Positions 53,401 through 54,715 of a stretch of 64,000 nt of DNA are shown in pieces; the first letter of the stretch is position 1; every line of letters begins with the position of its first letter. Source of the DNA: a virus (Duplodnaviria > Heunggongvirae > Uroviricota > Caudoviricetes); the IMG/VR virus record IMGVR_UViG_2713896909_000009, positions 32,673 through 96,672 of that record. One strand, given 5' to 3'. The notes below the pieces were generated by a model, which saw nothing but the letters and a program-made list of their open reading frames with translations, searched no databases and had not been told where the DNA came from. The translations under genes and the position numbers were made by a program.

Positions 53401-53849
53401 CCGCCAGTGGGCGTGCCGTATTGTCTCAGGAACAGGATGGCATCAAGTCGCACACCCACAGTGCCAGCGCATCAAATACTGACCTCGGTACTAAAACGAC
53501 CAGCTCATTTGATTACGGGACAAAAACGGTCAGCACGTTTAACCACGGTACAAAAACGACAAACAATACAGGAGCGCATACGCATACTGTCGGTGGTCGT
53601 TACGGTGGTGACTCCATCGGGGGTAAACAACGCGTACAGGTATCAGGAACCAACCAGGTGTCAAGCTCTGCCGGAGCACATGCCCATACTGTCGATATTG
53701 GTCAGCATAACCACACCGTAGGTATTGGTGCCCATGCGCACACTGTGGCATTGGGTGCGCACGGACATACCATCACGGTTAACGCTACTGGTAATGCGGA
53801 AAACACCGTAAAAAACATTGCATATAACTATATTGTGAGGCTTGCATGA
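50418..53849 (+). CDS. tail fibre protein (P1 S-like) with His-x-His repeat tip
   Basis: AAGGA before ATG 50418; C-terminus has [27 protein letters not shown] repeats and ends [11 protein letters not shown]. Confidence 0.8.
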
Positions 53850-54715
53850 TTAAGTTAATTCTTTCAGCGCCAGTACATGAAATGGCTGAAGCATTTAAGC
53901 GGGTATTCGCAAATGCAGATAATGTGGATGTTGTAGAAAAAACATTTGAAGCAATCCCGGAATTTGACTGCATGGTCAGTGCGGCAAACAGTTTCGGGCT
54001 AATGGATGGCGGCGTTGACGCTGCCATTACTGCATTCTTTGGTACTCAGTTACAGACACGTGTTCAGAATCATATTCTTCGTGAATATCTTGGTGAGCAG
54101 CCTGTAGGCACTGCATTTGTTATTGAAACGGGGGATAACAACCATCCCTGGCTGGTACATGCGCCAACAATGCGCGTTCCGCTGACCATTGACGGAACAG
54201 ACGCTGTATATAACGCCACGTGGGCTGCTTTACTTGCCATCTTTCAGCACAATAAAAATGCAACGACAGACAGGAAAATAAAGACGGTGGTATTCCCTGC
54301 AATGGGGGCCGGATGTGGTCAGGTGCCGTTTGAAAGTGTTGCCCGGCAGATGAAGCAGGCATGGGATAACTTTAATAAAGAAACAGAAGCAATTAACTGG
54401 GAATACGCACACTCCCGCCAGTTGGCAGTATTTAATACATGCGCGTACTGCCCGGGTACTCCTGTTTGTCGTTATGCGGATATTAAATATATTGGACTTG
54501 GCGATTACCGGACGTATTGCTTACGGTCGGGGCAGGTATGCATTAATCCTGAACATCAGGTTGATGACGTGCTGACTAATAATCGTTCTCGCCCGGGGGC
54601 GCATATGCATCAGATTAATCCGGTAAAATCCGTAGGTAATATTGCCATTGGCGCACACAGCCACGGAAGGAATATCACCATTGGTGCTCATTCCCATACC
54701 CCACATAAACAATAA
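53846..54715 (+). CDS. macro-domain protein with Cys-rich linker and tail-fibre-like His-x-His C-terminus
   Basis: Macro motifs [45 protein letters not shown]; C-terminus GAHMHQI ... [18 protein letters not shown]; ATGA overlap with fibre stop. Confidence 0.65.

Follow-up and report, generated by a model that had tools for sequence, protein, structure and literature searches.

Yeast Ymx7 (YMR087W, PDB 1NJR), an ADP-ribose-1''-monophosphatase that removes the 1''-phosphate, is the characterised relative of the phage protein described here; however, it is a cellular housekeeping enzyme that shares 20% identity with the phage protein and is without its Cys4/HxH extension. The MacroD-type hydrolases (E. 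coli YmdB, human MacroD1/2 and Oceanobacillus iheyensis (Oi) MacroD) have the macro fold and the glycine-rich loops in common with it. Among phage-encoded macrodomains, AdfM (T4 Tk.4 and PhiKZ gp104) acts against an ADP-ribosylating defence by neutralising DarT2, and this anti-DarT2 role is the only experimentally established role of a phage macrodomain that was found. AdfM differs from the present protein in several respects: it is of the DarG-like class, it stands alone outside the fibre operon, it has no C-terminal extension, it is expressed and localised for the protection of DNA, and no sequence similarity between the two can be detected (E=13). For phage Macro genes located in morphogenesis regions, a countering of soluble ADP-ribose (ADPr) derivatives has been predicted (PMC9503650). 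[quoted passage not shown]

The usual genes after a phage fibre are those of lambda Tfa, P2 G and P1 U (Caudo_TAP) and of T4/T2 gp38. The locus in question lies in a stretch of 64,000 nucleotides, hereafter the window (positions 32,673 to 96,672 of IMG/VR record IMGVR_UViG_2713896909_000009), in which a macro gene takes the chaperone position together with its coupling site. It has no homology to the fibre chaperones (no chaperone-family profile in Pfam, PHROGs or NCBIfam matches the ORF), the genuine Tfa comes next, and for the same tip elsewhere the macro gene is dispensable. The unusual position between fibre and chaperone, to which the initial annotation had drawn attention, is borne out by an ATGA overlap upstream and a Caudo_TAP gene downstream.

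The fibre operon of a P1-like element

The features of the operon are as follows.

49923..49941, + strand: P1 late promoter LPs, 5' of R-S-macro-Tfa, with boxes identical to the annotated P1 LPs
49972..50406, + strand: R gene, the first of the P1 tail fibre operon (from the ORF list), within a 94%-identical block common to P1 16/R/Sc
50418..53849, + strand: P1 S-like chimeric tail fibre gene (Pfam Phage_fiber_2, Gp34_trimer and Collar)
51769..51788, no strand assigned: orphan cixR recombination site, 20/20 identical to P1 cixR
53235..53849, + strand: T4 gp37-type receptor-binding tip, with collar, HxH needle and C-terminal end (phmmer against PDB 2xgf, E=6.1e-78)
53837..53840, + strand: Shine-Dalgarno (SD) sequence GAGG, in the fibre codons V-R, 5 nt 5' of the macro ATG
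53846..54715, + strand: macro ORF of 289 aa (ORF list and sequence reading)
54740..55318, + strand: Tfa/U-like tail fibre assembly protein (Caudo_TAP PF02413, E=4.9e-32; phrog_105) with its own SD (GAGGTGAAA)

The host element of the macro gene is a P1-like phage-plasmid. Its fibre trunk is P1 Sc to about 51955, where P1 homology ends, and the distal half is non-P1; the same fibre gene carries a phage tail protein annotation in pEA22_2. The fibres of STYP1 and of the T4-like phage Lv5cm end in sequences 82-84% identical in nucleotides to this tip, which is a true homologue of the T4 gp37 tip (PDB 2XGF, E=6e-78), with all the features of the latter: the collar, the HxH needle with its descending and ascending strands, the head and the C-terminal NIA[FY]NYIVRLA. 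As for the P1 invertible C-segment switch, which consists of cin, two inverted cix sites and the Sv'/U' alternatives, the fibre locus does not have this composition. No Cin homologue was found in the window (best tblastn E=6.9), nor a partner cix or a second S/U copy beside the single cixR, in agreement with the earlier statement that the window holds neither cin nor an inverted S'/U' copy. The orphan cixR is a relic of that invertible segment.

The macro ATG sits in GCATGA, at the very 3' end of the fibre gene, with a 4-nt overlap (ATGA). The junction AAYTAYATWGTGAGGCTKGC is conserved, and the ATGA junction recurs unchanged in every one of the 70-odd IMG/VR loci for which upstream sequence exists. 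In modules without the macro gene, the GAGG site serves Tfa, as read from the sequence; translation of the macro gene would be coupled to that of the fibre through the same SD and ATGA junction. Upstream, LPs consists of a -22 box (AAGTTACTT, 49923-49931) and a -10 box (TACAAT, 49936-49941), and no terminator-like site was found on the + strand from 49800 to 57700. An R-S-macro-Tfa transcript is predicted to start from LPs, late in infection. A fibre-macro fusion by programmed frameshifting is improbable: although the macro gene lies in frame -1 with respect to the fibre, reading of the sequence shows no slippery heptamer at ...GTGAGGCTTGCATGA.

Macro domain and C-terminal extension

The macro protein is divided into three parts.

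53846..54430, + strand: macro domain of the Ymx7-like subfamily, aa 1-195 (loop 1, aa 45-61; loop 2, aa 151-161)
54431..54559, + strand: Cys-rich segment, aa 196-238 (C202-x5-C208-x16-C225-x6-C232, then H237-Q238)
54560..54715, + strand: His-x-His tail and stop codon, aa 239-289

On the N-terminal macro domain, which had been recognised from the sequence alone, profile search and structure prediction agree. Pfam Macro PF01661 is matched at 70 bits against a cut-off of 22 (E=2.2e-19, profile positions 1-118 fully matched), and the AF2 model, with pLDDT above 94 across aa 1-195, has the three-layer alpha/beta/alpha macro fold. The glycine-rich ADP-ribose-binding loops are kept as 53-MDGGVD-58 and 154-GAGCG-158. 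In a set of 73 sequences that share 34-93% of their residues with the window protein, D58 and G158 of the active-site loops are invariant, and N48, D54, G55, G56 and G154 are at least 90% conserved; N48 and D58 stand at the Asn/Asp positions that are catalytic in MacroD enzymes. The macro-domain dN/dS is 0.05-0.15 among diverged homologues and about 0.1 even at dS above 1, and the domain is evidently under strong purifying selection. Because of this low dN/dS and the 2258 homologues at E<=1e-5, the macro ORF is to be regarded as real, far beyond chance.

By both sequence profile and structure, the closest relatives are the Ymx7-like ADP-ribose-1''-phosphatases. The gathering threshold of Pfam Macro_2 PF14519 is missed by the window protein (22.5 bits against 27), and many close homologues carry a precomputed PF14519 match. 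At 20% identity and with Macro_2 below threshold, the transfer of the substrate from Ymx7 to the phage protein is weak. Matches to MacroD-type profiles lie at E=2e-5 to 1e-4, and the protein is not placed among the YmdB/MacroD O-acetyl-ADP-ribose deacetylase equivalogs of NCBIfam (PRK00431 models), for which the best score is 50.9 bits against 246 (NF001666), followed by 33.7 against 200 (NF001664). In addition, identity to eukaryotic and other bacterial members is about 50%, which points to a conserved small-molecule substrate.

A DarG/AdfM-type antidote, stripping DarT-made ADP-ribose off phage DNA, is scarcely credible here. Phage macrodomains of such a kind do exist (T4 Tk.4/AdfM and PhiKZ gp104), and the protein has weak partial matches to DarG models, but these amount to 12.6 bits against a cut-off of 250 for NCBIfam DarG NF048014 and to E=0.0033 over 39 aa only for PADLOC DarG, while BLASTP against PhiKZ AdfM gives E=13; on these scores, membership in DarG/AdfM was rejected. 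Moreover, late expression is ill-suited to shielding replicating DNA, and no DarT toxin gene adjoins the macro gene, whose neighbours are the fibre gene and Tfa.

The Cys-rich linker and the fibre-tip-like His-x-His tail of the initial annotation have also held up, with four conserved cysteines in the former and an alignment of the latter to the ascending strand of the fibre. The cysteines of the window protein are C199, C202, C208, C225 and C232; C202, C225 and C232 occur without exception among 25 homologues, and C208 reaches at least 90% conservation. The segment is modelled at pLDDT 70-79 with a beta hairpin at aa 211-225, has a dN/dS of 0.14-0.45, finds no match in Pfam or NCBIfam, and is a putative metal-binding knuckle.

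The tail carries the motifs H253xH255, H271xH273 and H282xH284, each inside G-A-H-x-H. Aligned to the fibre tip, it runs colinearly with the ascending HxH strand, at 35% identity across 60 aa (E=8e-6, pairwise). It mimics one such strand of gp37, with equal spacing between the first two retained motifs, but is without the collar, the head domain, the descending strand and NYIVRLA. There is no DNA-level identity to any of the six fibre 3' ends examined: a recent duplication of fibre DNA as the source of the tail was rejected, only 12-18-nt chance-level matches being found. With a dN/dS of 0.28-1.06, the tail is the least constrained part of the macro protein, and its pLDDT is about 40 in the monomer model. 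G251, H253 and H255 are at least 90% conserved, and most homologues keep at least one G-x-H-x-H, while the number of HxH repeats ranges from 0 to 4 and the repeats are sometimes degenerate (YxY). Two 203-aa macro-only variants in the same slot have no tail at all (L086 and L087), and another locus, L081, is without HxH. A homology search with the C-terminal 100 aa as query returned two fragments only. It was likewise rejected that tail and fibre tip vary together: macro alleles that are nearly identical are found after distinct tip variants, and the number of HxH motifs in the one does not follow that in the other. The constraint on the four cysteines and the kept G-x-H-x-H suggest that the extension does something, beyond what a purely cytoplasmic enzyme would account for. 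It may be a metal-binding appendage that resembles, and is perhaps derived from, the HxH needle of the fibre.

Occupancy of the fibre-Tfa slot and the question of the virion

In STYP1, the same tip (84% nucleotide identity) and Tfa (77%) are joined directly, and the difference from the window is a clean 888-nt indel. An unbiased sample of gp37-type fibre ends, with 114 informative loci ending in NY-IVRLA, showed Tfa directly next in 98, the macro gene in 14 and a divergent Tfa further downstream in 2. In other words, the macro gene is absent from 86% of comparable modules, near-identical tips included, and by this comparison (STYP1 and the 98/114 loci) it is not a required partner of the tip; so far as can be read from these loci, the fibre is assembled without need of the macro gene. 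No other gene was found in the slot among the 114 loci, and the slot was rejected as a general moron hotspot with the macro gene as its sole insert. Decayed copies also occur: L080 and P0118/P0119 contain frameshifts, L085 is cut short, and in SEN34 only a relic is left. In the IMG/VR loci and the fibre-end sample, the macro gene was seen only behind gp37-type HxH tips, and this restriction fits a physical link to the tip as well as hitch-hiking.

The macro family has more than 2000 sequence clusters and is common in Salmonella/Escherichia prophages and P1-like phage-plasmids; the gene is present in 128/5426 complete E. coli genomes (2.4%), ST131 strains among them. The fibre-macro-Tfa module occurs in Gifsy-1 (lambdoid), in SEN4/5 and Chuche (P2-like) and in the present P1-like element, the gene being kept across three phage lineages and several genera. 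In cellular genomes the homologues stand by themselves, and for those of Anaerolineales and Parabeggiatoa no conserved partner gene was found nearby. No paper describing the fibre-macro-Tfa module was found in the literature.

The initial annotation had gone further and proposed a virion-associated ADP-ribose-processing enzyme, acting as an anti-defence effector or as a modifier of surface glycans. Its architecture, position and absence of cin stand, but this functional reading is unsupported, the tip and Tfa occurring without the gene and the tail being loosely constrained. In such an arrangement, three copies would trimerise through the HxH tail round metal ions, or would dock on the gp37-type needle with the help of Tfa, and each fibre would bear macro domains that either work on the outside of the cell or attach to a ligand there. 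Virion attachment is possible, though an accessory of this kind is judged unlikely. In its favour, the tail is colinear with the ascending HxH strand, it is disordered as a monomer, as expected of a segment that folds only on assembly, the gene is coupled to the fibre by ATGA in every locus examined, and it stands only behind tips homologous to 2xgf. Against these points, the same tip and Tfa do without the gene in STYP1 and in 98/114 modules; the tail, at a dN/dS of 0.3-1.1 with 0-4 repeats (some YxY), does not co-vary with the tip variants, is missing in L086/L087, is free of HxH in L081, and has neither the collar, the descending strands nor the NYIVRLA end of a true tip; and no fusion of the macro clade to fibre domains was found among 150 cluster representatives. 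The two halves of the earlier proposal are also in tension, because a protein attached to the tip remains outside the cell, where we know of no ADP-ribose substrate, and has no path from the fibre tip to the cytoplasm. No proteomics of the virion was found in the literature. Secretion of the protein is unlikely, since its N-terminus forms the beta-1 strand of the macro domain (modelled at pLDDT 97) and is no signal peptide. Nor were 'tail protein' labels accepted as evidence for the virion: the jumbo-phage homologues Noxifer gp265 and RSL1 ORF054 lie amid small non-structural ORFs and an amoeba homologue is labelled likewise, so that the label is annotation carry-over. Such labels are given by position or propagated.

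The indel pattern also bears on whether the gene is a neutral or selfish hitch-hiker, that is, a housekeeping-type ADPr-1''-phosphatase captured once through illegitimate recombination in the HxH-coding repeats of the fibre, with the tail as its fossil; the gene would then persist because its recombinational removal would break the tip-chaperone pair. The clean indel at a conserved junction, the single kind of insert in the slot, the weak constraint on the tail, the decayed copies (L080, P0118/P0119, L085 and SEN34) and the stand-alone state of the cellular homologues would all agree with such an origin. It is nevertheless quite unlikely as a full account, considering that the macro domain is under strong purifying selection at dS above 1 (dN/dS about 0.1) and that the gene is kept in three phage lineages and several genera. 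In addition, the homologous flanks make precise deletion by exchange with macro-less modules easy, and yet the gene persists; a benefit therefore seems to be conferred.

The same slot could suggest an extra factor for fibre maturation, in which the Cys4/His-rich extension supplies or buffers the metal ions of the needle, or acts as a second chaperone beside Tfa, while the macro domain provides a link to the NAD+/ADPr state. The gene does lie between fibre and chaperone and shares the translational coupling of the fibre, its Cys/His-rich sequence is conserved and metal-binding-like, and there is the precedent of T4 gp37, the assembly of which requires more than one factor (gp38 and gp57A). However, a maturation factor would hardly be dispensable in 86% of comparable modules, near-identical tips included, or exist in macro-only variants; the protein resembles none of Caudo_TAP, gp38 and gp57A, and the enzyme domain, not the extension, is what is most conserved. 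This role is accordingly judged very improbable.

Proposed role and its meaning

A general role in ADP-ribose processing or counter-defence is the most plausible one. More specifically, and tentatively, with a confidence that falls a little short of even, the ORF would encode an enzyme for ADP-ribose derivatives that is made late, stays in the cytoplasm, probably serves counter-defence or detoxification, and hitch-hikes in a mobile tip-chaperone cassette. The protein is predicted to be a catalytically competent enzyme of the Ymx7 subfamily, which would bind ADP-ribose and hydrolyse a substituent on the distal ribose, acting in the infected cell's cytoplasm at a late stage. The candidate soluble substrates are a breakdown product of NAD+, an ADP-ribose-based immune signal or ADPr-1''-phosphate; alternatively, the substrate may be an ester-linked ADP-ribosyl mark made by host defences upon sensing late structural proteins. 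The gene would be an optional passenger between a gp37-type tip and a Tfa that are co-adapted and move as a pair by recombination, and it is because of its place inside this co-moving pair that the three-gene module would be found in P1-like, P2-like and lambdoid phages. As for the extension, it may oligomerise the protein or keep it near the assembly of fibre and Tfa, and it would be dispensable in some lineages.

The counter-defence reading agrees with the general prediction for phage Macro genes (PMC9503650). Further precedents are the type II Thoeris sensitivity of the Pseudomonas phages and the neutralising of DarT2 by AdfM. On the other side, late expression would come after the early-acting defences.

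A more speculative form, which we consider improbable, links the enzyme to the trigger of the alarm: a hydrolase or sponge for an ADP-ribose signal would share its translational unit with that trigger, and the HxH tail would mimic the fibre tip, the enzyme thereby being produced alongside the alarm-raising complex and perhaps kept there. In a variant of this, the tail would be a decoy for the sensor.

Counter-defence is emerging as an activity of phage macro domains; the only ones characterised, AdfM, are DarG-like and act on DNA, whereas the class present here is Ymx7-like and thus a different one. If the protein were carried on the virion, this would mark the first case of a phage fibre that displays a macro domain. 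The identity of its substrate could reveal an ADP-ribose-based host response that is active late in enterobacterial infection, and could show whether a tail-fibre module that passes from phage to phage brings a countermeasure of its own along, a question that bears on engineered fibre swaps in phage therapy.

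The late operon and the fibre cassette

Judged from its sequence, the window is a P1-like phage-plasmid; over bases 40000-60000 it is 100% identical to plasmid pEA22_2 of Escherichia albertii and, in the parts homologous to phage P1, about 97% identical to that phage. The initial annotation had placed a macro-domain gene over the stop codon of the tail fibre gene and ahead of the fibre assembly chaperone (Tfa), and this arrangement was borne out: its ATG lies within the GCATGA closing the fibre gene, and Tfa starts 24 nt past its stop codon. In RefSeq, the product is named "macro domain-containing protein". 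The features concerned are as follows:

49923-49941: P1 late promoter LPs, intact
50418..53849, + strand: tail fibre gene, its stop overlapped by the start of the macro ORF
53846..54715, + strand: macro ORF, 289 aa
54740..55318: Caudo_TAP fibre assembly gene, Tfa

Since LPs is intact and no terminator-like site was found on the + strand ahead of the end of Tfa, R, S, the macro gene and Tfa form a single late operon.

Over its last 204 residues the fibre is truly homologous to the receptor-binding tip of T4 gp37 (PDB 2xgf, E=6e-78), and both the His-x-His needle and the terminal NIA[FY]NYIVRLA are included in the match. The gene as a whole is chimeric: its P1 Sc trunk, which is 94% identical to P1 as far as 51955 (where P1 homology stops), is followed by a Gp34_trimer-like segment and then by the T4 gp37-type tip. 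STYP1, a P2-like phage, and T4-like phages of Salmonella and Escherichia have tips about 82-84% identical to this one in nucleotides. A cixR recombination site (51769-51788, 20/20 identical to that of P1) also lies within the fibre gene. The window was described as free of the cin invertase, which is correct, and a partner cix site is absent from it as well; the lone cixR seems to be what was left of the invertible C segment once its variable half had been replaced. Downstream of Tfa, the following genes are found on the other strand:

55373-56521, - strand: WaaK/RfaK-type LPS N-acetylglucosaminyltransferase (NF012028, 657.9 bits against a cut-off of 618)
56508-57059, - strand: hexapeptide-repeat sugar O-acetyltransferase, overlapping the former by 14 nt
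57084-57413, - strand: 109-aa ORF between the acetyltransferase and lydA

The first two, which occupy the place of U'/Sv'/cin/lydC in P1, are probably lysogenic-conversion cargo altering the LPS receptor; in pEA22_2, ISKpn26 lies between them. The 109-aa ORF had no match in the Pfam-independent libraries (NCBIfam, PADLOC), and the best sigma-70-like promoter match of the scanned region (10/12, at 57413-57386) is on the same strand and overlaps its first bases.

An optional gene in a fixed position

Comparative evidence says that the macro gene is optional relative to the fibre machinery. In STYP1, the same tip (84% nucleotide identity up to the stop codon) is joined directly to the same Tfa (77%), so that the macro gene amounts to a clean 888-nt indel between them. 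When IMG/VR was scanned with the conserved fibre 3' end as bait, whatever came next, 114 loci were informative: Tfa followed directly in 98, the macro gene in 14 and a divergent Tfa in 2, and no other gene occupied the slot. Seen from the other side, the roughly 70 loci that have the macro gene and some sequence ahead of it all showed the same 4-nt overlap and a downstream Tfa, and the ORF ahead ended every time in a conserved ten-residue stretch followed by [FY]NYIVRLA. The module of fibre tip, macro gene and Tfa is carried by lambdoid Gifsy-1, by P2-like SEN4/SEN5 and Chuche, and by P1-like plasmids; among 5426 complete E. coli genomes, 128 have it (22 of 130 copies being plasmid-borne), and it also occurs in Salmonella, Citrobacter, Enterobacter and Erwinia.

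The Cys-rich segment, the tail and selection

The Cys-rich linker and His-x-His tail proposed from the sequence were both recovered. Residues 196-238 hold C202-x5-C208-x16-C225-x6-C232 and then H237-Q238, a Cys pattern kept in every full-length prophage homologue; the segment is predicted with moderate model confidence as a beta hairpin and has no match in the family libraries searched. Residues 239-289 contain three G-A-H-x-H motifs and, modelled as a monomer, are predicted to be disordered (pLDDT about 40). In alignment, this tail is colinear with the fibre tip's ascending HxH strand (S-x-x-GAHxH, 12 residues, IGAHxH, IGAHxHT), its best match among fibres being that of STYP1. Between tail and fibre DNA only chance-sized matches were found, which rules out a recent duplication of fibre DNA and indicates that the likeness is either ancient or preserved by the protein sequence. 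Metal binding is probable for the conserved Cys4 segment and the first HxH, which may serve to oligomerise the protein or to keep it close to fibre/Tfa assembly; that it is a metal-delivering factor or a second chaperone is quite improbable.

The macro domain shows a dN/dS of 0.05-0.15 at substantial divergence, the Cys segment 0.14-0.45 and the tail 0.28-1.06. Homologues have 0-4 HxH motifs per tail, some decayed to YxY; one (L081) has the Cys segment and no HxH, and two IMG/VR loci (L086 and L087, 4001-4612) encode 203-aa macro-only proteins in the same slot, lacking the entire extension, with the stop codon abutting the Tfa start. Near-identical macro alleles stand behind differing tips, so the macro gene does not co-vary tightly with the receptor-binding head. 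Attachment of the protein to the virion through its tail is unlikely, because the gene is optional, the tail is lax and dispensable, and neither an extracellular ADP-ribose substrate nor a route from the fibre tip into the cell is known. Somewhat less likely still is that the gene is a neutral hitch-hiker whose tail is a fossil; this is contradicted by the strong purifying selection, and by the ease with which recombination with modules lacking the gene could remove it. Frameshifts or truncations affect a few copies; in Salmonella phage SEN34 (L007, 3501-3698), a relic of aa 184-255, the Cys-rich segment (56% identity), without a macro domain, adjoins an O-acetyltransferase inserted behind the fibre/Tfa pair.

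The wider family and the proposed function

With its N-terminal 195 residues, the protein falls within a large family of stand-alone macro proteins of about 200 aa (2383 cluster representatives at E<=1e-3, roughly 34-76% identical to the window protein). Its members are found in diverse bacteria as well as in jumbo phages, giant viruses and eukaryotes, and among them the Cys/HxH extension is restricted to the enterobacterial prophage clade. Eukaryotic members carry fusions to WD40, RRM or dual-specificity phosphatase domains. Four eukaryote-like proteins (P0132, P0142, P0158 and P0250), in which the domain is joined to WD40 repeats, to an RRM, or to both rhodanese and dual-specificity phosphatase domains, are 36-50% identical to the phage domain, which is unusually high for a phage accessory protein. 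Such cross-kingdom conservation suggests that the substrate is a small molecule that stays the same, and not a protein target that co-evolves. The cellular genes stand isolated, with no ART, sirtuin or TIR partner beside them, and jumbo-phage members sit amid small accessory genes. Noxifer gp265 (L213), phiRSL1 ORF054 (L214) and a Balamuthia protein (P0126) bear the labels "tail protein" or "phage tail assembly-like"; the first two lie among non-structural genes and the third is from an amoeba, and the label appears to have spread from the enterobacterial prophage gene on account of where that gene lies.

We propose that the protein would be an active hydrolase of an ADP-ribose derivative, similar to MacroD and to the yeast ADP-ribose-1''-phosphatase Ymx7, produced late in infection in step with the fibre. 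It would act in the cytoplasm to remove what host defences generate in response to late structural proteins, be it an NAD+-derived product, a signal or an ester-linked mark, and the gene would owe its persistence to its place between two co-adapted genes travelling together. The chain as a whole is plausible, at a little under an even chance. It agrees with a general prediction by which Macro genes in the morphogenesis regions of phages serve against soluble ADPr derivatives (PMC9503650), and with the recent finding in Pseudomonas phages that the folded side tail fibre tip and its chaperone set sensitivity to type II Thoeris, that is, TIR / His-ADPR signalling (bioRxiv 10.64898/2026.06.04.730250). 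The protein is not a DarG/AdfM-type enzyme, and a DarG-like antidote is very improbable.

The family was already annotated: the GenBank record of Gifsy-1 flags its copy as Macro domain-containing, and PHROG 2613, which is this family, is listed as "unknown function"; full-text literature searches found no study of it. It comprises phage macro proteins of another class than the characterised anti-DarT2 macrodomain AdfM, set apart by their unique fibre-like extension and their fixed place in the fibre cassette.
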